Assembly: GCA_030666795.1 (NCBI GenBank)
Contig: DAOUXC010000001.1
Coordinates: 1 to 46,269, forward strand
Direction of reading: 5' to 3'
Length of the DNA: 46,269 bases
Source: Desulfobacteraceae bacterium
Lineage (GTDB): Bacteria > Desulfobacterota > DSM-4660 > Desulfatiglandales > Desulfatiglandaceae
Part shown: one piece after another, positions 671 to 36,939 of the stretch
Numbering within the stretch: the first letter of the stretch is position 1
Layout of the letters: every line of letters begins with the position of its first letter
Program-made: the position numbers and the translations under genes
The notes under the pieces: model-generated
The model's input: the letters and a program-made list of their open reading frames with translations, nothing else
Told to the model about the DNA's origin: nothing
Database searches by the model: none

Positions 671-1657
671 ATGATTATTGTAACAGGTGGTTCCGGTTTT
701 ATTGGAAGTGCGCTCGTGTGGGGACTCAACAAGCGCGGTGTCAATGATATTGTTATTGTCGATCACTTAGGCGAAACGGAGAAGTGGAAAAACCTTGTTC
801 CCCTTCGATTTTCCGATTATTTCGACAAATCTGACTTTATTGAAAAACTTGAAGCCGGATATTTCGGAAACAGTATCAGAGCTATTTTCCATCTTGGCGC
901 ATGTTCTTCCACAACCCAGAAAAATGCTGATTATCTCATTGAAAACAATTACCGGTACACAGCCCGTCTCGCCACATGGCAGGAAGAACACCGCGCCTGC
1001 AGGCTTATATATGCCTCCAGCGCTGCCACTTATGGAGACGGTGAACGGGGTTATCGTGATAAAGAGGATGAATTACACCTTCTTCGTCCGCTAAATATGT
1101 ACGGGTACTCAAAACATCTATTTGATCTCCTTGCCCTTCGCAAAGGGTGGCTTAAACATGTTGTGGGGCTGAAATATTTCAATGTCTTCGGGCCTAATGA
1201 ATATCACAAAGGTGAGATGAGAAGCGTGATAAACAAAGCTTATCCGCTCGTGTGTGATGAAGGGAAGATTTGCCTTTATAAATCATACCGTGATGAATAT
1301 AAAGATGGGGAGCAGCTTCGCGACTTCATCTACGTTAAAGACGCAGTCGATATGACCCTCTTCTTTCTCGACAACCCAAAGATAAACGGCATTTTCAATG
1401 TCGGCACAGGTATTGCCCGGCAGTGGAATCAGGTGGCAGATTCTTTGTTTCAGGCAGTCGGCAGGCCTCTTAACATCGAGTACATCCCCGTGCCTGATAA
1501 GCTGAAGGAAAAATATCAGTACTACACATGTGCTGATATGACAAAGTTGCGATCCGCCGGATACTCACATACCTGTATGGATATTGATACGGCCACAAAA
1601 GAATATGTACGGAATTATCTTAATTCAAACAAACACCTTTCTGTTACCAGAGAATAA
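671..1657 (+). CDS. hldD: ADP-L-glycero-D-manno-heptose 6-epimerase
   Basis: 328-aa ORF. Rossmann motif MIIVTGGSGFIGSAL, SDR catalytic YGYSKHLFD, and length and overall pattern typical of HldD/RfaD. Confidence 0.88.
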   Translation: MIIVTGGSGFIGSALVWGLNKRGVNDIVIVDHLGETEKWKNLVPLRFSDYFDKSDFIEKLEAGYFGNSIRAIFHLGACSSTTQKNADYLIENNYRYTARLATWQEEHRACRLIYASSAATYGDGERGYRDKEDELHLLRPLNMYGYSKHLFDLLALRKGWLKHVVGLKYFNVFGPNEYHKGEMRSVINKAYPLVCDEGKICLYKSYRDEYKDGEQLRDFIYVKDAVDMTLFFLDNPKINGIFNVGTGIARQWNQVADSLFQAVGRPLNIEYIPVPDKLKEKYQYYTCADMTKLRSAGYSHTCMDIDTATKEYVRNYLNSNKHLSVTRE

Positions 1658-1679
1658 GGGTATTATTATCTCTCCCGGC

Positions 1680-1868
1680 TTAAAGCGGTTCAAACACGAT
1701 CTTTCTCTTGGTATTATCATAGAGCTTGAGCCTGGCCTTTAGTGTCTTTTGCTCGCCAAAGATACTGATAAGCTTGACCTCACCCCTCTCTAATTCTATG
1801 AGATCAACGCTTTCCAGGAACATTTCTTCTTCCCCATCTTTCAAAATAAATGCATGAGCTTCACACAT
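1680..1868 (-). CDS. cooT: CooT-family nickel-binding protein (copy 1)
   Basis: Listed ORF trimmed to the internal ATG at 1868, which gives the family-typical MCEA N-terminus (Cys2 is the Ni ligand in CooT). GGGGAGG RBS lies 6 nt upstream of that ATG. About 62 aa, as expected. Confidence 0.75.
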   Translation of the reverse strand: MCEAHAFILKDGEEEMFLESVDLIELERGEVKLISIFGEQKTLKARLKLYDNTKRKIVFEPL

Positions 1869-1901
1869 GGAAAACCTCCCCATTGAATGATAGCCATCGA
1901 A

Positions 1902-2102
1902 TTACTCGAGTGCCTTTAAAGCCTTGCGTAAACATTCAGTGCTTTTTGCCGCCATCTCGATCATTTCCCGGACATAAGCCGCACTATCTTTCTTCCCCGC
2001 CGACTCTAATTGCTCGGCAAACATTTCGTATTCCTCCTGGTGATGATCATTGTGTGTGATCCAGTTCTCCAATCTGATCCTTGCCTTTTCAATAAAATCC
2101 AT
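1902..2102 (-). CDS. small helical His-rich protein (HNDHH motif), unknown function
   Basis: 66-aa ORF with GGGAGG RBS. Predicted all-helical, with ITHNDHHQEE and a lone Cys near the C-terminus. Sits between two CooT genes. Confidence 0.5.
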   Translation of the reverse strand: MDFIEKARIRLENWITHNDHHQEEYEMFAEQLESAGKKDSAAYVREMIEMAAKSTECLRKALKALE

Positions 2103-2197
2103 ATTTAAAGCCTCCCTGTTTTTTCAATTCGCAACCGACTTGTTTGATAGTGATGTTAATCCATTTGTATCCCTCAATTGATAGTTGTCTTATCTAT

Positions 2198-2389
2198 CTA
2201 ATCTTCCACTAACAAAATACAGTGATCAACCAGATTCATCTCCTTGACGTACGCCTTTATCTTAAGACGTTCTCCAAATATGCTCTCAAGATAGATACCA
2301 TCATCCTCTCGCCTTAAAATATCCACACTTTCCATGATAAACATCTTCTCACTCCCGTCCTTTATAAGGTGCACATTTGCCTCACACAT
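2198..2389 (-). CDS. cooT: CooT-family nickel-binding protein (copy 2)
   Basis: 63-aa ORF starting MCEANVHLIKDG, the same fold pattern as copy 1. AGGGGGG RBS upstream. Confidence 0.75.
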   Translation of the reverse strand: MCEANVHLIKDGSEKMFIMESVDILRREDDGIYLESIFGERLKIKAYVKEMNLVDHCILLVED

Positions 2390-2442
2390 AAATAATGCCC
2401 CCCTTTCATTGTCCGCAACATCTTTGTCCGGTTATTCGATCT

Positions 2443-3924
2443 TCATTGGTCTATTACTGCATCAAAAATATCCCTGCGATTGAGATCCTGCCAATAGCTA
2501 ATGGATAGTTCACGGATATGGGCGAAATATTCGGGGTTCAAGCCGCCATATTTCTTCAAGGCTGACTTGATGTCCCCTTTGATCTTGTCGAACCAGAACG
2601 ATTTTAGCCTTAAGGTCAGCTTTTTATTCCTAAATTGAAAAGCAGCCGCCGGACACGGGTTTTCATCAGAAATTTGAATGGCCCCCCGTCCCAGACTCGC
2701 CCCCGTGGCCACCTGGAGACCATCGTTCATGCAGCTCAAGGGAGGACTATTTCCGGCGAATGAAACAACTTGCAATGTATCAAAAGGAGCTTCCAGTATC
2801 TCCCTCGCCCTGACCCCCATCTTGGCCCCGATAAGTGAATAAATACCTAAATGGCGGTGAAACTCGTTGGTCAACAGACACGCCTTCCATTCTTCAAGGC
2901 CATATTTTGCAATGATTTTTTTTACATATGGGCTGACATCCTCCCTGAAGAGTGAAGGATCATCCGGAAAAACCTTTAAGACGACCGCATTACGGGGATT
3001 CAGATGAAAGTCCGCGGCATGTCCCAGGAGTTTCAAATACGTATTATGAACGCCTGCAGCCTTAAAGGCCGAGAGAGACATGACGTGAGCATGATCGGCT
3101 GAGGGTACAAATTTGAATAGTGATGGTCGATTGAGATAAATTACGGTCATTTCATCCCAAACACAAAAATGTTTTTCAGATAAGAGCCTCTGGATGTCAG
3201 GGGGCCGGTGAATTTTTGTCACAAGGCGAGCTGCCTCCGTATCCATGGATTCTATTTGCCTGTAAAGCCCAAAATCAAAGCAAAGCAGTTTTTCCTTAGG
3301 AAGGCTCATGCAATAAATTCTCAAACCTGATCCAAAGACAATGCGTGCGGCACTCAGATCTCGATTGGTATTCCAATCAGGCAGGGCGGCTTCAGGAGGT
3401 GAACCGTAATAGATGAGACGAGAGATCTTATTTTTTATCCGCGGATTTAACCTCAGGGCATCGGCCAGGTTTGTCAGGGGGCCGAGGCAGAGATATAGGA
3501 TAGCCTGGTCCTGAGATTCCAATATCTTTACAATCTCTGCTGCTCCCCTGGGGCCCACGGGAATATTGTCGGGCAATTTCACCTGCTCCGGCCACTTTAT
3601 ATCCTCTGAAAGTGCCCTCCAGGGAGGTGCCGCCTTCTTCAGGAGCCGTCCTTCGGCAATTCCAGTGCCTTTTCTTTCAAAATAACTCAAAAGCGTCCTT
3701 AAATTCCGGGCACCGCCGCAAGGGGATGCTGCTCCGTCCGAAGTGACCATAAGCGGGATATCAAACATGTCCGAGTTAAGGAGCATGACAACGGCCCGTA
3801 TGTCATCCATGGCCATGTCGGTATCGACAATGGCAGATACCCTATAGGTATGGGCATATGCGAAACAGGGAAAAAGGCAAAACAATAAGAACACATATGC
3901 AGTGATGTTTATTTTACGAAACAT
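2443..3924 (-). CDS. secreted fusion: inosine-uridine nucleoside hydrolase-like domain + FmdE-like domain
   Basis: 493 aa. Signal peptide ...FPCFAYA|HTYRV. IUNH motifs DTDMAMDDIRAV and LGPLTNLADAL. C-terminal HRHLGIYSLIGAKMG and SCMNDGLQVATGASLGRG resemble the FmdE (PF02663) core. Confidence 0.72.
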   Translation of the reverse strand: MFRKINITAYVFLLFCLFPCFAYAHTYRVSAIVDTDMAMDDIRAVVMLLNSDMFDIPLMVTSDGAASPCGGARNLRTLLSYFERKGTGIAEGRLLKKAAPPWRALSEDIKWPEQVKLPDNIPVGPRGAAEIVKILESQDQAILYLCLGPLTNLADALRLNPRIKNKISRLIYYGSPPEAALPDWNTNRDLSAARIVFGSGLRIYCMSLPKEKLLCFDFGLYRQIESMDTEAARLVTKIHRPPDIQRLLSEKHFCVWDEMTVIYLNRPSLFKFVPSADHAHVMSLSAFKAAGVHNTYLKLLGHAADFHLNPRNAVVLKVFPDDPSLFREDVSPYVKKIIAKYGLEEWKACLLTNEFHRHLGIYSLIGAKMGVRAREILEAPFDTLQVVSFAGNSPPLSCMNDGLQVATGASLGRGAIQISDENPCPAAAFQFRNKKLTLRLKSFWFDKIKGDIKSALKKYGGLNPEYFAHIRELSISYWQDLNRRDIFDAVIDQ

Positions 3925-3975: not shown

Positions 3976-4737
3976 TTACTTCACTTTGAAAGTGAAAGAG
4001 GCATTATACCTGTACTTATCACATTCCCTAATATTAATGTAGGGCACCTCGTACATAACATTCGCCATCCATCTTCCATTTCTTGGTATCTTGATATCAG
4101 CAAGGCCTCTTTCATCGGTCTTTGTATTCAAAGCGAATGCATTCGGCAGGTCTGAAAAACCTTCATAAGTAGCGTTCACGTTAATGAAAGGAAGGGGTTT
4201 CCCATCATAAAGCACCTTTACCCGAAAAACATCGCCCTCTTTCAACCCTCTCGTATCTGTAAGAGAAACGATCTCCAGTATATCGCCTGTGGCCCGATCC
4301 GTCATTTTTGCCTTTTCGCCCGCACAGATTATGGCCTTGGCCCGCATATCATAACGGAAGCAACTAATCACATTCTCCAGTCCCTTTTTGGACCGGAGCT
4401 TATATCCATCCGTGGTCTTACTGAGAAAACCCGGATGGATATCCGCCAGTATAATGTACGTGCCCTCTTCTCCGGGGACAAATTCAAACCCGGTTGAAGA
4501 GATCCGTTTAAGAGGAACCTTTTCGTCCTTTGAATCCAGGGCATAAACCTGGTGCAGGAAGTTTGCCTTGATCACCTCATCTTTAGGGAATTTATGTCCC
4601 CAGCCGATCTCAATCCGAACAGACTGACCGACCTTGGCTTGCTCATTATCAATGTTGAGCCACAAGCGGTGAGCATGGGCAATTGGGGTCGAAAAATAGA
4701 ATAGTAATATCAGTGCAAACAAAAGAATCTTTTTCAT
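3976..4737 (-). CDS. DUF4198 periplasmic Ni/Co-uptake-associated protein (copy 1)
   Basis: Signal peptide ...PIAHA|HRLWL, the typical DUF4198 mature N-terminal His-x-x-W. ATG 4737 preferred over GTG 4740 because of GAGGT spacing. Confidence 0.78.
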   Translation of the reverse strand: MKKILLFALILLFYFSTPIAHAHRLWLNIDNEQAKVGQSVRIEIGWGHKFPKDEVIKANFLHQVYALDSKDEKVPLKRISSTGFEFVPGEEGTYIILADIHPGFLSKTTDGYKLRSKKGLENVISCFRYDMRAKAIICAGEKAKMTDRATGDILEIVSLTDTRGLKEGDVFRVKVLYDGKPLPFINVNATYEGFSDLPNAFALNTKTDERGLADIKIPRNGRWMANVMYEVPYINIRECDKYRYNASFTFKVK

Positions 4738-4843
4738 CACGGAATACCTCGTCTGTTATTTAGCATCTCCATTCAAATAAAACTCCCCGAAGGTATTTTA
4801 CGGCGTCATGTTCGGGGAACTCACTCACAAACGTTCTCTGGTG

Positions 4844-5755
4844 TTATTTATTGAGCTTTTCCTGCATCCGTTTCATGGCCGTTTCATATGGCTTGCCCTC
4901 CATAAAACGTCCGACAAGGAGAAGGCCCATGAATCTTTCCTTGTCTTTTGACACTTTTTCTCCCATATCGGCCACTGTCCCTCGCACGATGCGCTCCCGG
5001 TCGGGATAACCGGCCCAATAGACCACGGCGCAGGGCATATCCGGCGGCAGAACTTCCTTTAGTGCTGCAAAAAGACCTTTTGGTTTCCAGAGAGCCATGT
5101 AAAAAACCATGGTAGAAGGATATTTTGCCAGATCCCTTAGAACCTGTCGCTCCTCCATCCGCCATCCAGTCAAAGAAAAAGGGGCGGTTTGTATGACAAA
5201 ATGCGTGTCATGTGCGGGGATGGTGCTTTTACCCAAGGCAGCCATGGCCGCCGCATCGCATCCCATGCCCGGAATAATGACCAGGTCCTCTGAGTCCAAT
5301 TGCTCCGCATACCAGTGGCTCGGGCCGTAAAGGCAGGGATTTCCGGAGTCCAGGAGCCCGATATCTTTTCCCTCTGTCATGAGGCGTTTGAATTGCCCCA
5401 CCCGCTCATCCCGTATCCGGAAACGCTCTACTTTGAATTGGACCAATTCCTCCCTGTTTAACTTCTGCTGCGGCTTCCCTTTGTAGTCCCAAATATCCGT
5501 CCATGGATCAAACAGGACGGGTTTATCGCCTACGTACTCCGCAAACAGCTTCACATGTTGATCCGAGGCCACAATAATGTCCATTTTCTTGATGGTTTCC
5601 AGTGCCTGCAGTGTCGCGGTCCCGGGACCTGCCGGACCGGTCCCGATAACATAGAAATGGCCGCGGCCCCAGGCTGCTGCCTGTGATGGCCACAATACCG
5701 CTGCAACTGACAGGGTGATCACTGCAACAAGAATTATCCGCTTTATTTCCTTCAT
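4844..5755 (-). CDS. exported tetrapyrrole (corrin/porphyrin) methylase-fold protein, CbiF/CobM-like
   Basis: 303 aa. N-terminal K/R-rich plus hydrophobic signal or anchor (…SQAAA|WGRG). TP_methylase motifs VIGTGPAGPGTATLQA and LDSGNPCLYGP. C-terminus VVYWAGYPDRERIVRGTVADM...LLLVG is CbiF-like. Confidence 0.72.
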   Translation of the reverse strand: MKEIKRIILVAVITLSVAAVLWPSQAAAWGRGHFYVIGTGPAGPGTATLQALETIKKMDIIVASDQHVKLFAEYVGDKPVLFDPWTDIWDYKGKPQQKLNREELVQFKVERFRIRDERVGQFKRLMTEGKDIGLLDSGNPCLYGPSHWYAEQLDSEDLVIIPGMGCDAAAMAALGKSTIPAHDTHFVIQTAPFSLTGWRMEERQVLRDLAKYPSTMVFYMALWKPKGLFAALKEVLPPDMPCAVVYWAGYPDRERIVRGTVADMGEKVSKDKERFMGLLLVGRFMEGKPYETAMKRMQEKLNK

Positions 5756-5772
5756 GAGTTTTTCTCCTCATT

Positions 5773-7857
5773 TTAAAACTTAGAGCCAAACTGAAGTCCC
5801 CAAACATACTTGGGCATTTCAAAGCCAGCCTGTTCCTGGTAATCGGTACCGGTCACATTGTTGACAAAGGCTGAGGCCGTCCACTCCACACCATGAAATT
5901 TGAACTTCTGCTCAATGCCTACGTCCACCGTGATATAGTCATCCAGTTCAGGGCCCCGCTGAGAATCCCGACCACCCACATAACGTGAGCTTAACTCCAG
6001 CCATCCATCCGGCCAGACATTATACCGGGCTAATAATTTGATCTTGTGCTTAGGCAAAAGAGCAGGCAGGTAGTATGACCAAGCTGCTTCAAACCCTGTT
6101 TTGTCCGCATCATACTCCTGATAGACATAAGCTGCCGTTGCCCGAAACCTTTTTCCCACATGGATGGCGGCCTCAAGCTCTACTCCGTAAAGTTTGAAAT
6201 GATCAATATTATAGAGGCAGTTACTGCCGAAGGACGGTCCCAGGGCACCTGCGGCTGTGATGCCGTTGTCATTGATGAAGTCCTTGATGTCATAATAAAA
6301 ACCGGCCGTTCTCACGGTCAGAGGTTTAAAATCCTGAATTACCCCGAGTTCATACTCCCAGGCCGATTCCGGTTTTAGTTGAGGGTTATCTAAGGACGCG
6401 CACCGCGCCCACCAGTAATAGTCTCACGGGCACGGGAGCCGGTAGGAACGGCTCACCGCGGCATAGAGGGCCGTTTCAGGAGTTGCCTGGAAATCAACCT
6501 TCATGCTTGGATAGAAACCGGATTCGGTCTGTTCTTTGCCTTCCTGGGGCCAGTTAGCGGGAAACGGACCTTGTGCAAAGTTGGAAAAATACGTATCCAT
6601 GTCAATATGGTAGTAGCGAACTCCGGGTGTAAACCTCCAGCGATCACCCACGCTGATGATATCCTGGATATATGCCGACTGGACTTTGTAGATTATGGGA
6701 TTTTCGTCAGGCCAGCCAAGTTCCTGCCATTCGGCTCCCACTGTTACACTATGGGAATCAAACAGATCAATATCCCGGTACTCGACGATGACACCCTGTG
6801 TCTCATCGTCCGCGAAATCGTCTTTCTGGAATACGCCCATAGAATTGTACATACTGGTCCACCTTCTGCCCACGGTCTGAAAATAGTGGACCTTGGCGAT
6901 TCCGGGACCCATGGGAACGTCAAGAACAGCATCCAGGTAGGTGGTGTCTTTTTCCCATTTCGGGGTTTGTGGCCCGGCAAATTGAGGCCAGTCTATATGT
7001 CTCAACTGGTCACGATTTGCGTAATATTTTGGGTAGTCATCATCATAGTCGGCCCGGGCCGGATCATTTATGACCGGATCACCGTAGACCACTTCGGAAC
7101 GCTTGACTCCAAGGCTGAGGGTGGCATCACCGGGGAGAAAAAAGGTCAGATGCCCGTTAAAGCTATCTGTTTCCTGAAAGTTATTTCTGAGATAACCATC
7201 GCTCTCCTGCGTGCTTACTGAAAAGTTATAGCCCACAAAATTCCCCGCACCGCCTTTAACGGAAGCTGATGCGTTCCAGGTGTTATACTTCCCGTAAGCC
7301 GTCCTGACATCGGCGGCAGGTTTAAGGTCCCCGGTCTTCTTTCCCTTCTTCGTAACGATATTTATCACACCTCCGATGGCAAAGGGATGAAGTACCGAAT
7401 GTCCTCCGCGAATGATTTCAATATGGTCAATATCATCCATATTCAACGTGGACCAGTCCACAATGTACCTGCCGTAATGTCCTGTATGATTGATACGCCG
7501 GCCGTCGATTTCTATTACCAGACGGCCTTCATTAAGACCCCGGATGGATACCTCATCACCAGGGCTTGCCATCAGCGGATTGACACGCTGCACATCAACC
7601 CCGCCGATCTCGGTAAGCACATCGGTCAGGGTGCGAACCTCACCGGGCTTTTTGAATTCATCCATCCTGATAATGGTTTTTTCGGTTGTGATTTCAACGC
7701 CTGGCTGTGGGGCCATAACCGTAATTTTGCCGATATCAATGGCTTCTGAGACGTCCTCCTGGGCAATTGCTGAAATTCCGAACACGCCTGGTGCAAAGGT
7801 AATCGCAGTCAGAATACCTATTATCCAAAAAAAGGTTCTTTTTCTCCTTGATTCCAT
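5773..7857 (-). CDS. TonB-dependent outer-membrane receptor with a single in-frame TGA at 6424-6426 (Sec-recoding candidate or nonsense pseudogene)
   Basis: Listed ORFs 6424..7857 (signal peptide, plug domain) and 5773..6315 (ends ...LQFGSKF) are in the same frame. The gap translates with no further stop and contains the conserved NPQLKPE motif. Confidence 0.8.
6394..6426 (-). other. UGA codon plus downstream GC-rich hairpin (SECIS-like)
   Basis: RNA reads UGA-GACUAUUACUGGU-GGGCGCG-GUG-CGCGUCC. 7-bp stem (one G.U). Apical loop lies 21-23 nt after UGA and begins with G. Confidence 0.4.
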
Positions 7858-8060
7858 TTTTGTTTCACTCCTTCCTCGATTAATGAGTTGAAGATGGCCC
7901 CGGAACGCCTGAAGGGATTGACGGAGGAATACTTCGATGGTATAAAGGAAATTGAAGTATCCCTCATCCCGAGGGACTTCATCCCGGGAGGGCAGCCGGA
8001 TTTCCTTTGGCGAGGAAGGCTGTCCTCCTTTTTGTTATAAGCTTCTTATGTCAATCTGTT

Positions 8061-8088
8061 AGTGAATATATCACTTGTGTGAAATCAC
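8061..8088. promoter_or_regulatory. candidate operator palindromes upstream of the receptor operon
   Basis: AGTGA-atata-TCACT (8061-8075) and GTGA-aa-TCAC (8079-8088) lie between the upstream terminator and the receptor start. No regulator assigned. Confidence 0.25.
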
Positions 8089-8108
8089 CTCCTTTCAACC
8101 TTTGCTCA

Positions 8109-8166
8109 ATAAAAAAAGCCAGGAACGCACTACCGGATTCCGCTCACGGTCTGGCCTTCCTGGCTT
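8109..8166 (-). terminator. intrinsic terminator after tonB
   Basis: 10-bp stem AAGCCAGGAA/TTCCTGGCTT followed on the minus strand by a run of 7 U (A-run 8111-8117 on plus). Confidence 0.65.
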
Positions 8167-8302
8167 ATTGTTTTAGGTCTTATTTTTGAGTAAAGTACTG
8201 GCTAAAATCGCAATTTCTTATTGCGTATTTAATTCGTAGTGTTACTTACATTTCTTGCCATCCATTTGTCAAGAAAAATACATTATCTTTGTGCAGTGTT
8301 CA

Positions 8303-9001
8303 TCACGTAAGCTCAAACACGATTGTCAACTCTAAAGGTATTGATCCTGCGAACAGATTCGCCGGGGGTCTCGGGAAGGGTGATGCCTTTTGAACGGCCC
8401 TGAGAGCTGCCTGGTCCAGGGCCTTGTTTCTTGAACTCCTGACAACCTTCAGACTGATTAACCGGCCGTCGGATGCAATCACAAAGCCGACAACGGCACG
8501 GCCCTCAATCTGTCTGACCCTGGCCGCAGCAGGATATGCTTTATAACGCTCTATCCTGAGCCGCACCATCTCAAAATATTCATTGGAGGTTATGTAGTCG
8601 CTCGTTTCTCCCAATGTCCCAGGCTCCCACGCAGCAATTTCTAACCTTGTATTCTCCAGAATGTCCGGCATGCTTATCCTCTCCACCAGGCTGTCCGGCA
8701 GATCCGTGCCTGCCTTTTCGATCTTCAAAGGTTTAAGTCTCGGGACGACTCTTTTGCGCACCTTCAGCCTTTTGACATCATGCGGCCTTACAATCATTTT
8801 GGGCCGTAAGCGTGGTCTCGGTATGCTTCTTGATGGCGGTTTCGAAATATCCCTGAGAGTCAACTCGATATAGGTCAATGCGCTCGACTTATAAATCCCG
8901 GCAATATGCATGAATATCACTAAATGAATGCCAAAAGAGACACCGATCAGGCCGCGCAGCAACCAGTTGGGTTTTGTTTTGTTTTTCGACACGGATTTCA
9001 C
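8303..9001 (-). CDS. tonB: energy transducer TonB
   Basis: 232 aa. N-terminal TM anchor, Pro/Arg/Lys-rich linker, C-terminal YPAAARVRQIEGRAVVGF...ALDQAALRAV TonB_C pattern. GTG start. Confidence 0.85.
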   Translation of the reverse strand: MKSVSKNKTKPNWLLRGLIGVSFGIHLVIFMHIAGIYKSSALTYIELTLRDISKPPSRSIPRPRLRPKMIVRPHDVKRLKVRKRVVPRLKPLKIEKAGTDLPDSLVERISMPDILENTRLEIAAWEPGTLGETSDYITSNEYFEMVRLRIERYKAYPAAARVRQIEGRAVVGFVIASDGRLISLKVVRSSRNKALDQAALRAVQKASPFPRPPANLFAGSIPLELTIVFELT

Positions 9002-9030: not shown

Positions 9031-9399
9031 TTATTTCTTATCGAATACTTTTCTTTTTATTTGAACGGAATGGCCAAAGTTTATCAACAAACCAACTTCT
9101 ATACCGGTTGCTTTCAAATAATTGACTAATTGAACCTCATGGATCTGTGCCAGATCTTTTACAGCTTTGAGCTCAAGTATCGCTTTATCTTCAACAATTA
9201 TATCTGCCACATATTCACCTACAATTTGATCCCGATAATAGACTTTAATGGGCATCTCGCTACTCGCTTTCAAGCCCATCCTCTTCAATTCAATCATAAG
9301 AGCATTTTGATAGACCTTTTCAAGGAATCCAAAGCCAAGTTCGTTATGGACCTTATATGCTGCGTTTATGATTTTCTCTGTCAGGTCGGAATATTTCAT
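9031..9399 (-). CDS. GxxExxY protein (PD-(D/E)XK-like superfamily)
   Basis: 122 aa. ...AAYKVHNELGFGFLEKVYQNAL... contains the eponymous G-x-x-E-x-x-Y. Typical length. Confidence 0.85.
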   Translation of the reverse strand: MKYSDLTEKIINAAYKVHNELGFGFLEKVYQNALMIELKRMGLKASSEMPIKVYYRDQIVGEYVADIIVEDKAILELKAVKDLAQIHEVQLVNYLKATGIEVGLLINFGHSVQIKRKVFDKK

Positions 9400-9417
9400 T
9401 TAGACTCCTCATCGTTA

Positions 9418-9439
9418 GACACGGATTTCACAGATTTCA
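9418..9439. repeat. direct repeat copy B flanking the GxxExxY cassette
   Basis: GACACGGATTTCACAGATTTC has one mismatch to 8988-9009. The decamer array continues to 9446. Confidence 0.7.
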
Positions 9440-9474
9440 CGGATTAAATTTAATTTTTTTCAAAAAATCCCTGT

Positions 9475-9882
9475 CTAAAAATCCTTCTCCGTGGCCAAGC
9501 AGAGTCTTGCGGCACCTGCCGCCTTTGCCACATCCATCACCTTAACCGCCTTATTGAGAATCACGGCCCTATCGGCCCTGACCACAACTAGCTTATCCTT
9601 CCTCTCGCCGATCATTTCCTTGAGCCGGTCAAAAAGACCGGCAAGCGGAACCTCCTGATTTTCCAGAAAGGCGCGCCCGTCTCTGTCTACATAAACCGTT
9701 ATTTCCTGCTCTGTCTGGGGTGCGGAAGCCTTTGCCTGGGGGAGTTTTATCTTGATCCCCTCATCCACCATAAAGTTGGTGGTCAACAGAAAGTAGACCA
9801 GGAGCAAAAACACGATGTCAATCAGGGAAGTAAGCGGCATCTGCACCTGGAAACGTTCTCCTCGTTTTCTATGAACAAGCAT
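9475..9882 (-). CDS. exbD: biopolymer transport protein ExbD/TolR
   Basis: 135 aa. PLTSLIDIVFLLLVYFLL TM plus the conserved periplasmic domain pattern. AAGGAG RBS. Confidence 0.9.
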   Translation of the reverse strand: MLVHRKRGERFQVQMPLTSLIDIVFLLLVYFLLTTNFMVDEGIKIKLPQAKASAPQTEQEITVYVDRDGRAFLENQEVPLAGLFDRLKEMIGERKDKLVVVRADRAVILNKAVKVMDVAKAAGAARLCLATEKDF

Positions 9883-9894
9883 CGCTTATCTCCT

Positions 9895-10503
9895 TCAGGA
9901 CCGCCGGCCTAAAGCCTTGATGAAGGTTACTGTCCCGTCCTGGAGCTGGGACTCATATCTATCCACACGGGCAACCAGGTAACTGTGGGCCACAATGGTG
10001 GGAAGGGCCACGGCGAGACCTAAGGCAGTAGTCAGCATGGCCTCCCATATGCCTCCCGCAAGGACCGCCGCATTCACCTTGCCGCCCATCTGCTGAATAA
10101 CCATGAATGCCTTTATCATTCCGAGGACGGTTCCCAAAAGTCCTAACAGCGGGGCGATGTTTCCGATGGTGGCCAGTGCCTGAAGATATCGGGAAAGACC
10201 AGTCACTTCCTCATCCGTAGCATGGATAATCACGGTCTCCAAGGTTTCTCTGTCCTGATCCTTGACTTCCATGGCCTGTGCCAGGACACGTCCCATGGGC
10301 GAATCGCTTTTGCCGGCCAGCTCGTATGCCTGATGATCCTCATTGTTTTTGATATGCCGGCCTATTTTTTCCACCAGACCATCCCCCCGAATCCGCACCC
10401 GGGAATACCGGATAAGCCGTTCCAAAAAAATGGCTAATGCGATTACGGAACAAAGAAGGATGGGCACTACAAGAACCCCACCCTTTGATAAAAAATCAAT
10501 CAT
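9895..10503 (-). CDS. exbB: MotA/TolQ/ExbB proton channel protein
   Basis: 202 aa. Three TM segments and LATIGNIAPLLGLLGTVLGMI signature. AAGGAGG RBS. Confidence 0.9.
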   Translation of the reverse strand: MIDFLSKGGVLVVPILLCSVIALAIFLERLIRYSRVRIRGDGLVEKIGRHIKNNEDHQAYELAGKSDSPMGRVLAQAMEVKDQDRETLETVIIHATDEEVTGLSRYLQALATIGNIAPLLGLLGTVLGMIKAFMVIQQMGGKVNAAVLAGGIWEAMLTTALGLAVALPTIVAHSYLVARVDRYESQLQDGTVTFIKALGRRS

Positions 10504-10515
10504 ATTGACCTCCTT

Positions 10516-12321
10516 TTATTTTCTCACCTGCCTACCTGCTATCTCCTCAACATCAGGTTTTCCGTCAAAATTCAGGTCCTTGGACCGTTTGACCAGGGCC
10601 TCTGACTCATCATAGTCCTCCCAGAGATCAGGCTTGCCGTCCCCATTTGTGTCCTCTTCCACTGCGGTCAGCCGGCCTTCTTGATAGTAGTACCAGATAT
10701 CCGTCCTGCCGTCGGAGTTATTATCCTTTTCCGCCCGGATAACCTCTTCGGCCTCGTTGTAAAACCAGGTGATATTTAATCCGTCACTGTTCCCATCTTT
10801 CTCTTCACTTTTCCTAAGTCTGCCCTTTTCATCATAGTATTCCTTTAAATCAATAGTCCCATCCCAATCTTCATCAATCTCCTTGAGTCTCAAAACGCCT
10901 TTTTTGTAGAAACAGCGCAGATCCGCCGACCCATCCCCATCCTTATCCAGTTCCATTACCACGGACCATTCATCCCGGTTGAACCATTGCTCGGTCTCAA
11001 ACCTGCCGTCCTGGTCCTGGTCCCTGACAAGTCTTTGTTTTTTCCCATTCCCATAAAAGACCTTCAAGTCAACCTCCCCGTTTCCACTTTCGTCTCTTTC
11101 GATTCTGGCAAGGAATCCACCCTTATAATATTGCCATGCATCCGTTTTGCCGTTCAGGTCCGTATCGCTCAGAACCCTCTCCTTTTTCCCTTTCCCATTG
11201 AAATACACGCTTATATCAGGCTTTCCATCACGGTTTTTGTCCTGTGTCTGGAGGTGCATATTGCCTTTTCGAAAAAATGATAAGGTTTCCATGTAACCGT
11301 CGCCGTCGGCGTCTGTTTGTGCCTTAACCGGTGCACCCCTGCAATAGGTCCTGATCCTGTCTATCCTTCCGGTGTATCTGGTGTCTTCCTTGATTATTTC
11401 CACCAGGCCCTGTGCGTCGAAATGGCAAAAGAAATCCATCTTTCCATCCAGATTGGTATCTTTTTCCTGGCAAACCGGTTTTCCATTCTTGAAACGCATG
11501 AATATGTCAAAGGATTTGTCACCATTGGTGTCTTTTCGCTGTTCAGATGGAAGGCCGTCCCTGAATTTTGTAATGATCTCAAACCACCCATCCTGATCCA
11601 GGTCCTTTTTTTGCTCAACCAGTTTTCCATGGCTGTAAAAACGGGTCTCTTCCATCTTTCCATCCCCATCCGGGTCGTGACGGCTCTCCTTTGGAAGGCC
11701 TTCGGAATCATAAAAAATGATCCTCTCCACCGTCCCGTCACCGTCATCATCAACTTTTTTCTCAACGGGCTTATCTTTCACATAGGTCTGCCATATGTTC
11801 ACGTTTCCGTCGCCGTCCGAGTCCCTGGTGGAACGGGCCAATCTCCCTTCTTCAAAATAATAAACACTGTCAAACAGGCCGTCTCCGGTGACATCTTTTT
11901 GTATCTTCAATGGCCGTTCCAGGGGGTCAAAGGTTATTATCTGATTAATCTTTCCGGTATCCAGTGACGTCCGCTCCTGCCGGATTCTTTTTCCCGCCTC
12001 AAAATAATCCCGATTATCAATCCGTTGGTCGTGATTCGTGTCTCTGTCTATCCTGATGACCTGCTCATTTTCATAATACTGGAAGCGGTCCATAAACCCG
12101 TTGCTATTACTGTCGATTTCCAGCATGGTGATCTTTCCCTCTTTGTCAAAGTGGGCAATCTGGTCTATGTTACCGTCTTTGTTTGTATCTTTTTTAAGCA
12201 CATCCCCGTTTGCCGAGGCCGCACCAAATCGGTAAAGGCCCACCCAGACCAGCAAGGCCCCGAAAAGGATATATTTGATTCCTGTTTTAAAGAGTCTTTC
12301 TTTTTGTGAACGGGTAAACAA
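10516..12321 (-). CDS. membrane-anchored or secreted DxDxDG (EF-hand-like) repeat protein
   Basis: 601 aa. N-terminal hydrophobic segment, then about 20 repeats of roughly 24 aa of the form [KR]D-x-[DN]-x-DG-x-x-[DE]...[FY]-x-x-G. TTG start with GGGGGA RBS; start is uncertain. Confidence 0.7.
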   Translation of the reverse strand: MFTRSQKERLFKTGIKYILFGALLVWVGLYRFGAASANGDVLKKDTNKDGNIDQIAHFDKEGKITMLEIDSNSNGFMDRFQYYENEQVIRIDRDTNHDQRIDNRDYFEAGKRIRQERTSLDTGKINQIITFDPLERPLKIQKDVTGDGLFDSVYYFEEGRLARSTRDSDGDGNVNIWQTYVKDKPVEKKVDDDGDGTVERIIFYDSEGLPKESRHDPDGDGKMEETRFYSHGKLVEQKKDLDQDGWFEIITKFRDGLPSEQRKDTNGDKSFDIFMRFKNGKPVCQEKDTNLDGKMDFFCHFDAQGLVEIIKEDTRYTGRIDRIRTYCRGAPVKAQTDADGDGYMETLSFFRKGNMHLQTQDKNRDGKPDISVYFNGKGKKERVLSDTDLNGKTDAWQYYKGGFLARIERDESGNGEVDLKVFYGNGKKQRLVRDQDQDGRFETEQWFNRDEWSVVMELDKDGDGSADLRCFYKKGVLRLKEIDEDWDGTIDLKEYYDEKGRLRKSEEKDGNSDGLNITWFYNEAEEVIRAEKDNNSDGRTDIWYYYQEGRLTAVEEDTNGDGKPDLWEDYDESEALVKRSKDLNFDGKPDVEEIAGRQVRK

Positions 12322-33771: not shown

Positions 33772-34395
33772 ATGCAAGACAATAATAATCACGAGTGTGG
33801 TCAAAATCATTGTAAACAAAGGCGGGGTCCAAGCAGCTTCTGGATGCATGATCCGGAGGTTGTCTTTAATGAGCTTAAGCTTAAAGAGGGAGACTGTCTT
33901 CTTGATCTGGGCTGCGGGCCGGGAGATTACACACTCGAGGCTTCCAGGATCATCGGAAACTCCGGAGCAGTATATGCGATGGATAAATGGCAATATCTGG
34001 TTGATAGTCTGATAGAAGAAGCTGATTCTCAAGGGCTTACGAATATCAGGGCAATGGTCTCTGATATTACCGGCCCATTACCTTTTGAAGACGGTTGCAT
34101 CGATGTTTGTTTGTTATCCACAGTACTCCATATCTTTAATCTTTCTAAAGTTGAAAAAACGATATTCAACGAAATCAGGCGTGTTTTAAAACCGGGAGGG
34201 CGTGTTGCAATTATCGAGTGCAAAAAAGAGGAGCAGCCTTTTGGTCCGCCGAAACATATGAGATTGTCTCCGGATGATATTGAGGATTCCATACAAAAAT
34301 ACGGTTTTGAGAAGTTGAGCTTCTCTGACCTGGGCTATAATTATATGATTCAATTCAATTTGCCAAAAACTGAGGTGCAATCTCAGATGACATGA
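33772..34395 (+). CDS. class I SAM-dependent methyltransferase
   Basis: Motif I LLDLGCGPGDYT, post-I and motif II/III spacing (VLKPGGRVAI). Confidence 0.8.
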   Translation: MQDNNNHECGQNHCKQRRGPSSFWMHDPEVVFNELKLKEGDCLLDLGCGPGDYTLEASRIIGNSGAVYAMDKWQYLVDSLIEEADSQGLTNIRAMVSDITGPLPFEDGCIDVCLLSTVLHIFNLSKVEKTIFNEIRRVLKPGGRVAIIECKKEEQPFGPPKHMRLSPDDIEDSIQKYGFEKLSFSDLGYNYMIQFNLPKTEVQSQMT

Positions 34396-34416
34396 AAGTA
34401 TGAAAGGAACTATGCA

Positions 34417-35009
34417 ATGGAACTATCCGAAATGGAATTTCAAAAACGCAATCCCAGAATAGAGATTATTCAAGCCATAAACGATAAGAATTTGGCCTGG
34501 TGTTTAAATAAAACGGCGGAGATTCATGGCCACTTTTACCCGGGGAGTGCACTGGGGGTCATGGCCTCTGTGTGGGGTCTGGGTCAGTTGGGAAATGGAT
34601 CAATGCATTCCGATGGAATGGAAAACCTTATGGCTGTCGTTGAGATCAATGCCTGCTTTGCCGACGGGATTCAGGTGGTGTCCGGGTGCACCCTCGGCAA
34701 TAACGCCCTGGTATACCGTGATCTTGGTCGCCTTGCAGTAACCTTTGCCATACGTGGAAAAGAAACGGGGGTGCGCGTCAGGGTCAGGCCCGATTTCCGG
34801 TCCTGCATAGTGAAGCTCGTTCCTGAATTTTACCCGCTTTTGAAAAAGGTTATTATGGATAGAGAGGGTGGCCTGGAAGAGGAAACAGCCTTTAAGGAGA
34901 AGGGACGGGAAGCAGCCTTTGCTGTCATTGAACGTCCTTTTGAAGAGCTTCTAATCGCCGAGGAAGTATCCCCCGAGCTGCCCGAATACGCCCCGATCAC
35001 CGAAAGCGT
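34417..35009 (+). CDS. FmdE-family protein, exon 1 (interrupted by group II intron)
   Basis: HGHFYPGSALGVMA and NACFADGIQVVSGCTLGNNAL FmdE core. The unspliced ORF ends 7 codons into the intron (…ESVCARHGT*). Confidence 0.75.
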
Positions 35010-36939
35010 GTGTGCCAGGCATGGCACGTGACTAGCAGGGTGAAAGTCCCTGCACCAGGTGTTCGCGGAGCCTAAGGTTAGGAAAAGGGCAAGGGCGTCG
35101 TCGTGAGGCGGGGTCTGGAGGAAGCCCAATCCAAAGATGCAGGGCGACGAACAGGAACCGGATCTGAGGTGTGGTACATCCGGGACGAGTGGGCACGTGA
35201 CCACGAAGTCCTCCATCCGCAACTGGGGTGTGCTTTATAAATCCGGCGTTTATGCATTGAAAGTTACGTGTCTTACCCTGGGAGATCTCTTATGTGCCCT
35301 GGGATGTCGCGTGCGACGGAAATTGGCTGAGGGGAGAGTAATCGACCCTGACCGCATGAGAGAAGTCAGCAGAAGGCATAGTAGGCGCAAAGCAGGCAAG
35401 GCTAGTGAGACACTCCAATGTCGAAAGACGGAGAAACGGATATGCTGAACCGTAAAGCTGGCGTTCGAAGGCCTGAACGGTTCCCAAAAGGGATTAAATG
35501 ATAGGACTGCAGGACGGAGAGACGAGTGAGCATTAGACCGGCAAAACAATTGTGGTTGCCCTTTGAAATAAAGGGTGGATTGTTCACATTGAAAGCTGAC
35601 ACCGCCAGTCCGGTCGAAGACGAACAGATTATGGAGAAGGTTGTGGACAGGGATAATCTGTTGACAGCCCTCCGTAATGTAAAGCGGAACGGAGGCTCTC
35701 CCGGAATTGATGGTATGACGGTGAAAGAATTGCCCGAATGCCTGAAAAGGAAGTGGCCAAAGATCCGCAGGCAGTTAATGAGTGGAACATATGTTCCACT
35801 TCCGGTAAGGCGAGTTGAAATACCCAAACCCGGGGGAGGGATACGACAGCTGGGTATCCCCACCGTGCTGGACAGATTTATCCAGCAGGCATTATTGCAG
35901 GTACTGCAACAAGAATGGGACGCTACCTTTTCTGAGTTCAGTTATGGATTCAGACCTAAAAGAAGTGCCCATCAAGCCATTAAACAATCTCAAAGGTATC
36001 TCGAACAGGGGTATCGATGGGTAGTTGACATGGACCTTGAGAAGTTTTTCGACCGAGTAAATCATGATAAGCTGATGAGTGAGGTCCAAAAACGTGTTTC
36101 AGATAGAAGGGTAAATACCCTGATCCTGCGTTTTCTGCGATCCGGAATAGAGCATGAGGGCAAGCTTCTTATAACGGAAATGGGAACTCCGCAAGGGGGG
36201 CCGCTTTCACCGTTATTGGCAAACCTGATGCTTGATAATTTGGATCGTGAACTGGAGCATAGAGGCCATCGGTTTGTGCGATATGCAGATGACTGTAACA
36301 TATATATCAAAAGCAAACGCGCGGGATCGAGAGTCCTCCGAAGTATTAGCCTGTTTTTGAGCAGTCACTTGAAGCTTTCAGTTAATGAGGCTAAAAGTGC
36401 TGTAGATCGGCCCTGGAAACGTCAGTTTCTGGGGTTCACCCTCAGCTCTAGGTTGAATAGGCGCATCAGTTCGAAAGCGATCAAACGTTTTAAGAGCAGG
36501 ATTAGAGAAATCACCCGTCGGGTTCGAGGAAGACGCATCGAAGTAATCGTGAGGGAGCTTCGCCGGTTTATGTTAGGCTGGCAGGCGTACTTTAATTTTA
36601 CGGAAGTGCGTTATACCCTAAAAGAGCTGGATTCCTGGATCAAACGGCGTCTTCGATGCTACCTTTGGAAGCAATGGGGACGGCGGGGTTACAGGGAGCT
36701 TCTGAAACGTGGAGTAAGTAGGGATCTTGCTTGGAATACAGCGAAATCGGCGCATGGTCCATGGAGGCTGAGCCGCAGCCCGGGTCTGGCTTTTGCTCTA
36801 CCGGCAAAGTATTTTGCACGTCTAGGATTGCCAAGACTGTTTGTTAAACCGACTTAGTCAACCGAACCGCCGTGGTACGTGATCCGTATGCCCGGTGGTG
36901 TGGGAGGAGGGGAGTCGTGAGGCTCCCCCCTATCCCGAT
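35010..36939 (+). mobile_element. group II intron (ribozyme + RT/maturase ORF), sense orientation in the FmdE-family gene
   Basis: 5' GTGTG at 35010. IEP ORF in domain IV. Domain V-like hairpin about 36865-36898. Domain VI GGGGAGUC-GUGA-GGCUCCCC with bulged A at 36932. 3' end AT at 36938-36939, 7 nt after the bulge. Confidence 0.85.
35526..36857 (+). CDS. group II intron reverse transcriptase/maturase (no endonuclease domain)
   Basis: RT blocks GIDGMTV, RRVEIPKPGGGIRQLGIPTVLDRFIQQA, GTPQGGPLSPLLANL, VRYADDCNIY, plus X/maturase RRFMLGWQAYFNF. Start codon is uncertain. Confidence 0.9.
   Translation: MSIRPAKQLWLPFEIKGGLFTLKADTASPVEDEQIMEKVVDRDNLLTALRNVKRNGGSPGIDGMTVKELPECLKRKWPKIRRQLMSGTYVPLPVRRVEIPKPGGGIRQLGIPTVLDRFIQQALLQVLQQEWDATFSEFSYGFRPKRSAHQAIKQSQRYLEQGYRWVVDMDLEKFFDRVNHDKLMSEVQKRVSDRRVNTLILRFLRSGIEHEGKLLITEMGTPQGGPLSPLLANLMLDNLDRELEHRGHRFVRYADDCNIYIKSKRAGSRVLRSISLFLSSHLKLSVNEAKSAVDRPWKRQFLGFTLSSRLNRRISSKAIKRFKSRIREITRRVRGRRIEVIVRELRRFMLGWQAYFNFTEVRYTLKELDSWIKRRLRCYLWKQWGRRGYRELLKRGVSRDLAWNTAKSAHGPWRLSRSPGLAFALPAKYFARLGLPRLFVKPT

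Follow-up and report, generated by a model that had tools for sequence, protein, structure and literature searches.

The gene described here lies in a stretch of 46,269 nucleotides from a Desulfobacteraceae bacterium (contig DAOUXC010000001.1 of assembly GCA_030666795.1), called the window below, and encodes a TonB-dependent outer-membrane receptor whose reading frame carries one UGA codon at 6424-6426 on the minus strand. The decoding of this codon as selenocysteine (Sec) is strongly supported by comparison with relatives and is very probable. The initial annotation of this DNA had proposed a recoded, Sec-containing receptor, and the proposal is supported by the same UGA in 24 of 24 related loci, by relatives with cysteine (Cys) at this position and by a downstream hairpin conserved at the nucleotide level. 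The best overall explanation, to which we give a probability of roughly 0.85, is that Sec is inserted at this codon, that the product is a full-length receptor of the PCPU motif type and that its function, as far as we infer it, is metal capture.

The receptor gene and its in-frame UGA

Two open reading frames (ORFs) had been recognized as parts of one receptor, in the same frame and split only by TGA 6424-6426, and the sequence confirms it. Between the ATG at 7857 and the TAA at 5775..5773 (minus strand) the sole stop is the TGA at 6426..6424; beyond it the frame is open to the TAA, with no second lesion, also as initially described. The features concerned are the following.

5773..7857, minus strand: read-through receptor gene, encoding a 694-residue TonB-dependent receptor with signal peptide, IGKITVMA, plug, barrel and C-terminal ...GSKF
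6424..6426, minus strand: in-frame UGA, predicted selenocysteine codon U478; the same column is TGA in 24 of 24 related loci
6430..6432, minus strand: Cys476 codon (TGC), the C of the C-P-U dyad, invariant in the receptor alignment
6400..6402, minus strand: Cys486 codon (TGC), 8 residues past Sec, overlapping the hairpin loop and 3' arm
6217..6219, minus strand: Cys547 codon (TGC), last of the four Cys/Sec residues, in predicted extracellular loop L8 (the equivalent in the homologue P0084 is C353, connection 340-353)
6394..6410, minus strand: hairpin GGGCGCG-GUG-CGCGUCC, resembling a selenocysteine insertion sequence (SECIS), starting 13 nucleotides past the UGA

The read-through translation runs ...AAVSRSYRLPCP-U-DYYWWARCASLDNPQLKPESAWEYELG... 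and comprises 694 codons, 216 of them past the UGA. The motif stands in the receptor as ...SRSYRLPCP-U-DYYWWARCASLDNPQLKPESAWEYELG..., and the P-C-P-U motif is present in the DNA as ...RLPCP-TGA-DYYWW... at 6424-6438 (minus strand). As the initial annotation had noticed, one Cys lies two residues before the UGA and another eight residues after it; they are C476 and C486. There is one further Cys only, C547, so that the receptor holds four Cys/Sec residues in total (C476, U478, C486 and C547).

Concerning the domains, Pfam recognizes a Plug (3.1e-14) and a single barrel match (1e-37, residues 222-668) that crosses the UGA, and a TonB-box-like IGKITVMA was spotted by eye near the N-terminus. The C-terminal ...GSKF is the aromatic ending typical of outer-membrane barrels, and the protein has it only if the UGA is read through. 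In the rest of the window, TGA ends 10 of 27 other Pfam-supported genes. TGA is therefore an ordinary stop here, the genetic code is the standard one and any recoding must be specific to this site; a scan of the window gave no other convincing TGA-split gene.

Conservation of the UGA among relatives

A search with the read-through protein returned homologues of which the 120 closest listed were 54-96% identical, 423-544 residues long and covered about 60-70% of the query. In 117 of these 120 the gene call ends in ...RLPC(P/G), that is, it stops at the UGA codon. The reciprocal search with the 216 downstream residues gave 103 proteins, every one of them a fragment of 130-204 residues. Related loci were then read at the DNA level, 24 in number: 16 from GTDB genomes, 4 from metagenomes (family members among 80 loci from a scan keyed on generic plug motifs) and 4 reached through exact-protein look-ups. 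TAA or TAG is found at the UGA column in none of them. In the 15 loci that are long enough, as in the window, 213-219 in-frame codons follow the TGA up to a C-terminal ...F, and this downstream part is 63-84% identical in amino acids among relatives, similar to the upstream part. The exception is L108a, where the frame breaks 131 codons past the TGA in a contig with apparent frameshifts; in the remaining loci the downstream frame runs off the contig end. The relatives belong to the Desulfobacterales, and one carrier of an orthologue is in culture, Desulfonema magnum 4be13 (locus L011, NZ_CP061800.1).

Regarding residues at the UGA column, the protein P0084 (L108b, in locus L108) has a Cys there, encoded by TGC; it reads RLPCPCDYYWWARC and its motif is PCPC. 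Locus L108 (ENA ERZ21862645 ctg29805l) carries tandem paralogues at 904-3017 and 4391-6503, one with TGA and the other with TGC, each followed by a TP_methylase gene; next come a FecCD/ABC/Peripla_BP_2 transporter, a methyltransferase and an FmdE gene. The apparent frameshifts of this contig are probably artefacts of long-read assembly. Cluster representatives were searched exhaustively, and the closest full-length relatives without an interruption were just 28-33% identical. Two of these distant proteins, P0224 and P0229, align Cys-Cys with P-U and thus have Cys at the UGA column; most other TonB receptors have unrelated non-Cys residues there. Two features generally expected of a selenoprotein gene were found: an in-frame UGA conserved together with the coding sequence downstream, and Cys-containing homologues aligned to the UGA (P0084/L108b, P0224 and P0229).

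The hairpin downstream of the UGA

The 7-bp GC-rich hairpin reported 13 nucleotides past the UGA, with its loop at nucleotides 21-23, is present where the initial annotation had placed it. On the minus strand it consists of a 5' arm GGGCGCG (6410..6404), a loop GUG (6403..6401) and a 3' arm CGCGUCC (6400..6394), and the loop indeed falls on nucleotides 21-23 past the UGA. In bacteria the SECIS consensus is a stem-loop within the coding region soon after the UGA, with an apical G/U about 21-23 nucleotides from it, as known from fdhF and used by bSECISearch. The element of fdhF has a loop of roughly 6 nucleotides and a bulged U. The window hairpin is like the Escherichia coli fdhF SECIS in being intra-coding, soon after the UGA and with G/U at the apex, but its stem is shorter and has no bulge, and its loop has 3 nucleotides (GUG or GGU). 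A stem-loop 3' of the UGA with apical G/U is thus found here as a 7-bp stem with a GUG loop. bSECISearch is a bacterial SECIS search tool named in PMC12013277.

Conservation was analysed in 22 distinct Sec-form sequences. Codons +6 to +10 after the UGA encode Ala-Arg-Cys-Ala-Ser, and their two- to sixfold degeneracy would allow many spellings, but they are nearly always GCG-CGG-UGC-GCG-UCC. Their mean pairwise codon diversity is 0, 0, 0.09, 0.37 and 0.20, respectively, against a control median of 0.58 in 29 other codons with equally conserved amino acids (Mann-Whitney p = 5e-4). The loop codon CGG has drifted (to CGU) only in L108b, the sole Cys form (TGC) found. The hairpin is therefore kept at the nucleotide level beyond what the protein sequence requires.

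All Sec-form variants fold to a hairpin with a 3-nucleotide loop (-9.6 to -14.6 kcal/mol), and in the register GGGCGCG-GUG-CGCGUCC 93% of cells are paired across the Sec forms. In L106 the apical pair changes from G:C to A:U by a double change (GGGCGC-A-GUG-U-GCGUCC). Five sequences with a G-to-C change have the shifted fold GGCGC-GGU-GCGCC; the palindromic GCGC core permits both registers, with G-U apical in either. As a general fold this second register was rejected (85% paired, no covariation) and was kept only as the likely fold of the five variants. An alternative fold that pairs the 5' arm of the hairpin with codons upstream of the UGA was rejected too, since those codons vary freely among relatives. 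The hairpin is constrained as an RNA, which is consistent with a SECIS; binding of SelB to it is what we infer from this.

If so, the hairpin in the mRNA, with G-U at its apex, would recruit SelB carrying Sec-tRNA(Sec) as the ribosome reaches UGA 478. Sec would be inserted and translation would continue for 216 codons to give a complete 22-strand TonB-dependent receptor, and the full-length precursor would be exported and folded into the outer membrane. If no Sec were inserted, the product would have neither strands 14-22 nor the C-terminal Phe and should not assemble.

Family membership

The initial annotation knew of no described family of Sec-containing receptors. One is on record, however: the idea of a Sec receptor was right, but the family is not new, because NCBIfam already has an entry curated for exactly the PCPU motif, NF049947.1 ('TonB-dependent receptor, PCPU motif-type'), and a sister type was published in 2025 (PMC12013277). 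Profile searches used NCBIfam release 20.0 (June 2026), with U entered as C. The read-through protein scores 1283.5 bits with NF049947, whose cutoff is 800, with residues 9-694 on profile positions 3-685 of 685. It stays below the cutoffs of the three other types, namely NF049944 (PUIUD; 508.3 bits, cutoff 850), NF049946 (CU; 416.4 bits, cutoff 700) and NF049945 (FCYXU; 245.5 bits, cutoff 825). By its sequence, the window gene is a member of an already curated, computationally predicted family. The eponymous motif is common to NF049947 and the window protein and no sequence-level difference separates them. The entry is a naming rule without functional characterization, and the loop location, hairpin constraint and operon context presented here were worked out in this analysis.

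Concerning the sister types, deep-Sep predicted a TonB-dependent receptor of Desulfosarcina sp. BuS5 as a new selenoprotein (2025, PMC12013277), and its authors state that experimental verification is still needed. In a 2026 review (PMC13188914) this receptor is listed as the FCYXU motif-type, NF049945; the review also lists another outer-membrane barrel selenoprotein and counts the Thermodesulfobacteriota among the most selenoprotein-rich organisms. The FCYXU receptor resembles the window protein in being a Desulfobacterales TonB-dependent receptor with one in-frame UGA and with both TGA- and Cys-containing homologues, but it belongs to a separate family with a CxxU motif, for which the window protein is far below the cutoff. 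The PUIUD and CU types are homologous to the window protein and have a Sec/Cys dyad at the same place, before a conserved Asp at the start of loop L7, but they do not have the extra pair Cys486/Cys547. In the literature searched, no mention was found of the PCPU type or NF049947, nor of Desulfonema magnum together with selenocysteine.

A receptor with two in-frame TGA codons (motif RMP-U-I-U-D) was also observed in locus L008 at 9130-11238, in the metagenome-assembled genome contig JAJSZT010000018.1. The PCPU gene and its methylase-fold partner come directly before it, and a tetrapyrrole-methylase-fold gene of its own follows. This paralogue, linked to PUIUD by the motif name and not by an NF049944 score, has a homologous stem GGGCGC/GCGUCC with a 5-nucleotide loop AGGCU, 13 nucleotides past the second UGA. 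Its hairpin, like the drift of the loop codon in the Cys form L108b, agrees with a SECIS role of the element in the window.

Alternative explanations for the UGA

Several points weigh against Sec decoding. Within the window, the 71-nucleotide region around the hairpin (6370-6440) folds no better than its shuffles (z = -1.29), and the single-sequence minimum-energy fold uses another, non-conserved pairing. Covariation is thin, with a single compensatory change in one sequence (L106), and the G-to-C change in five sequences breaks the 7-bp register and needs a one-base shift to a 5-bp stem. No Rfam family matches the hairpin region; scans at the gathering threshold (window and 13 loci) and at E <= 1 (5700-8400) gave no SECIS family. 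Moreover, no selA, selB, selD or tRNA-Sec was found in the 46-kb window or in the flanks examined, nor any tRNA-Sec in a search of the window together with 23 loci; that the source organism is competent for Sec is an assumption based on its relatives. In the literature searched, experimental selenium incorporation is reported for no TonB-receptor selenoprotein. As covariation is thin, the main weight is placed on the freeze of synonymous sites, and the case goes beyond chance because of comparative evidence, namely the TGA in every locus and this freeze, not because of the folding of a single sequence.

The poor fold of the window's own hairpin region, together with the public record of the close relative P0001 as a 477-residue protein, could be taken to mean that the two ORFs are what is left of a dead receptor, be it a pseudogene, a recent nonsense mutation or a sequencing error. 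The initial annotation had kept a very recent nonsense mutation as its alternative. Nevertheless, the same TGA stands in all the loci read, spanning 54-96% protein identity, the 216 codons downstream are open and conserved, there is no second lesion and synonymous sites are constrained just past the UGA. A stop shared in this way by relatives is not a lesion, so the codon comparison excludes a recent nonsense mutation, and a dead or misread gene of any kind is extremely improbable. It could also be that the UGA is used without Sec, either through near-cognate suppression by Trp or Cys stimulated by the hairpin or as a true stop between two polypeptides that assemble. Read-through can in general be promoted by a stable hairpin past a stop codon, the window showed no Sec machinery, and gene callers do find starts for the downstream fragments. 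On the other hand, the alternation of Cys and UGA at one column is the classical signature of Sec, the stop is always TGA and never another codon, and the internal starts of the fragments vary (130-204 residues) and would leave out strand 14 together with the conserved NPxLKPE motif. In addition, NCBI curators model the PCPU family as a selenoprotein and the host lineage is selenoprotein-rich (PMC13188914). Use of the UGA without Sec is consequently very unlikely, and Sec insertion is the reading followed below.

Location of the Sec site in the receptor

The structure was modelled on the natural Cys form P0084, which is without the plug and the first strands; its alignment included full-length bridging sequences. 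The model reached a mean predicted local distance difference test (pLDDT) of 89.3 and a predicted template modelling score (pTM) of 0.85, and strands were numbered backward from the C-terminal strand 22. In this model the motif region (LPCPC, a short helix and the third Cys) is a 23-residue connection between strands 13 and 14. All even-numbered connections are turns of 2-4 residues, and the odd-numbered ones (L2-L11) have 8-41 residues, except L4 with 2. Given that the even connections are short turns and the odd ones long loops, the motif would fall within extracellular loop L7, and L8 would hold the fourth Cys. The placement of Sec478, Cys476 and Cys486 in L7 and of Cys547 in L8 is thus a prediction supported by a confident model.

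The traits of the TonB-dependent receptor superfamily (plug, 22-strand barrel and C-terminal aromatic residue) are present, and the P0084 model aligns with solved receptors at a template modelling (TM) score of about 0.7. A Foldseek comparison with the PDB gave generic TonB receptors, FecA, ZnuD and OprC among them, and did not discriminate the substrate. The receptors OprC (copper) and ZnuD (zinc) have the same fold as the model (Foldseek E about 1e-14 to 1e-15, TM 0.69-0.73), but sequence identity is 12-13%, they have no Sec and their ligand residues lie outside any L7 C-x-U dyad. Both bind a bare metal ion through side chains, and the resemblance is one of functional analogy, not of membership. 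In OprC, copper is bound through a Cys/Met/His site; in FecA, L7 and L8 close over ferric citrate.

Operon and metal-uptake context

The receptor gene is part of a cluster on the minus strand, whose other members are listed from its upstream end.

10516-12321, minus strand: 601-residue protein with EF-hand-like repeats (residues 408-501) and sub-threshold matches to the Lsa25.6 adhesin family and lanmodulin
9895-10503, minus strand: exbB (Pfam MotA_ExbB), conserved in related loci
9475-9882, minus strand: exbD (Pfam ExbD), conserved in related loci
8303..9001, minus strand: tonB (Pfam TonB_C), upstream of the receptor, position conserved in L001, L003, L005 and L012
4844..5755, minus strand: secreted protein of tetrapyrrole-methylase fold (Pfam TP_methylase, 1.7e-32) with a signal-peptide-like N-terminus, directly downstream of the receptor
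3976..4740, minus strand: secreted DUF4198 protein (Pfam, 1.1e-39), a periplasmic metal-binding family, conserved in L004, L005, L012, L013 and L015
2443..3924, minus strand: secreted 493-residue fusion of IU_nuc_hydro and FmdE (Pfam) with a signal-peptide-like N-terminus, last gene of the cluster, conserved in L004-L010

The order 601-residue protein, exbB, exbD, tonB, receptor, TP_methylase, DUF4198 and nucleoside-hydrolase-like/FmdE fusion is conserved across relatives. The gene for the EF-hand-like protein is directly upstream of exbB in L001, L003, L005 and L012, and the TP_methylase gene follows the receptor in 12 of 12 sufficiently long genome loci (L001-L016) and in L108, L106 being the exception. 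The first characterized member of DUF4198 is a periplasmic zinc-binding protein (PMC12663993). In the TP_methylase-fold protein (4844-5755) the GxGPG-like motif is intact; as no source of S-adenosylmethionine is expected in the periplasm, the export of a methylase fold suggests a binding rather than a catalytic role.

Further along in the window, between 13921 and 38888, regulators of the DtxR type (with a FeoA domain) and of the MarR type stand beside two divergent FeoB genes, a second DUF4198 gene and a P-type ATPase; an MMPL/RND pump accompanied by a LolA-like protein and a pair of DUF1007 and NicO genes are also present. In relatives, the neighbours of the receptor include CbiM-CbiQ-ABC genes (L107) and a transporter of the FecCD/ABC/periplasmic-binding-protein kind (L108). 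The operon and the window around it are a metal-uptake and metal-homeostasis island. Upstream of the receptor, Rfam detected no riboswitch, cobalamin included, either in the window or in 13 relatives, and the 445-nucleotide non-coding stretch between tonB and the receptor start (7858-8302) has no Rfam match even at E <= 1. The only cobalamin riboswitch found, in L107, was set aside because it serves a different receptor.

Some other observations were made in these regions. A gene of the GxxExxY / PD-(D/E)XK kind (9031-9399, minus strand) separates exbD from tonB. L001, L005 and L012 have no such gene at this position and L003 has only a 27-residue remnant of it, which suggests a recent insertion. 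A separate methyltransferase and FmdE pair lies at 33772-35031, and just past this FmdE gene there is a group II intron (35097-36857, plus strand), with D1-D4 (RF02001, 123 bits, 35097-35271) and a reverse transcriptase/maturase ORF (35526-36857). In the locus of Desulfonema magnum (L011), two inverted Acido-Lenti-1 matches (8119-8164, minus strand, and 8264-8309, plus strand; 44 and 42 bits, gathering threshold 37) occupy the gap of about 1 kb between the receptor and its methylase-fold partner, and these may be the ends of a small inserted element.

Function of the Sec/Cys site

Regarding the function, the L7 residues Sec478, Cys476 and Cys486, with Cys547 of the neighbouring L8, could form a soft-ligand site at the mouth of the barrel. 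This site would capture a thiophilic transition metal or metal complex (of the Ni, Co or Zn class), scarce in the sulfidic anoxic habitat, and TonB/ExbBD would drive its import to the exported, presumably periplasmic, partners encoded downstream. A role of the Sec/Cys site as metal ligand is suggested by context and chemistry and is put forward tentatively, at somewhat less than even odds. The more specific proposal, in which C476-P-U478, C486 and C547 are the direct ligand set that strips Ni, Co or Zn from external sulfide complexes, is about equally uncertain. As for nickel ligands, an idea brought in with the initial annotation, the gene context supports metal uptake in general and not nickel specifically, and the proposal of nickel as the metal is tentative.

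The evidence for metal capture is thus of context and chemistry, which counts against it, as does the fact that the sister families keep only the two-residue dyad, a feature that suits a redox role just as well; moreover, a corrinoid or tetrapyrrole substrate could be what the secreted neighbour of tetrapyrrole-methylase fold points to. The main functional rival accepts Sec insertion but sees in C476-x-U478 a redox or structural centre, for instance a selenenylsulfide that locks or gates L7. Such a centre could also reduce or exchange with cargo bound to polysulfide or thiols, or with a disulfide-linked carrier of corrinoid or tetrapyrrole. The dyads of the sister proteins, U-x-U in the PUIUD paralogue and C-C in P0224/P0229, are of a form common in redox-active pairs. 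C486 and C547, the extra pair, may simply make a disulfide, and the adjoining methylase-fold protein suggests an organic cofactor as cargo; besides, most known selenoproteins are redox enzymes (PMC13188914). Nevertheless, an electron donor outside the outer membrane is not obvious, the neighbours are metal-ion systems (DUF4198, NicO, Feo, the DtxR-type regulator and, in a relative, CbiMQO) and neither the window nor the 13 relatives have a cobalamin riboswitch before the receptor. A redox or structural centre is considered only slightly less probable than a metal ligand, and capture of metal by the Sec/Cys site is the function discussed in what follows.

Implications

With respect to annotation, the two ORFs should be merged into a single call, a 694-residue selenoprotein. 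Public records give close relatives such as P0001 as a 477-residue receptor, and the orphan C-terminal fragments stand in many databases. What is new here is the predicted extracellular placement of the Sec/Cys positions in L7 and L8 and the context of a metal-uptake island. The PCPU family would put Sec on the outer face of the outer membrane, in a loop that closes over the ligand in well-studied receptors, and the cultured carrier Desulfonema magnum 4be13 makes the question approachable. The carriers are sulfate reducers of habitats in which sulfide keeps metals bound. Should the Sec/Cys site bind the cargo, this would be an unusual non-redox use of selenium, as a metal-capture ligand at the cell surface, and the acquisition of trace metals in sulfidic sediments would be tied to the supply of selenium.

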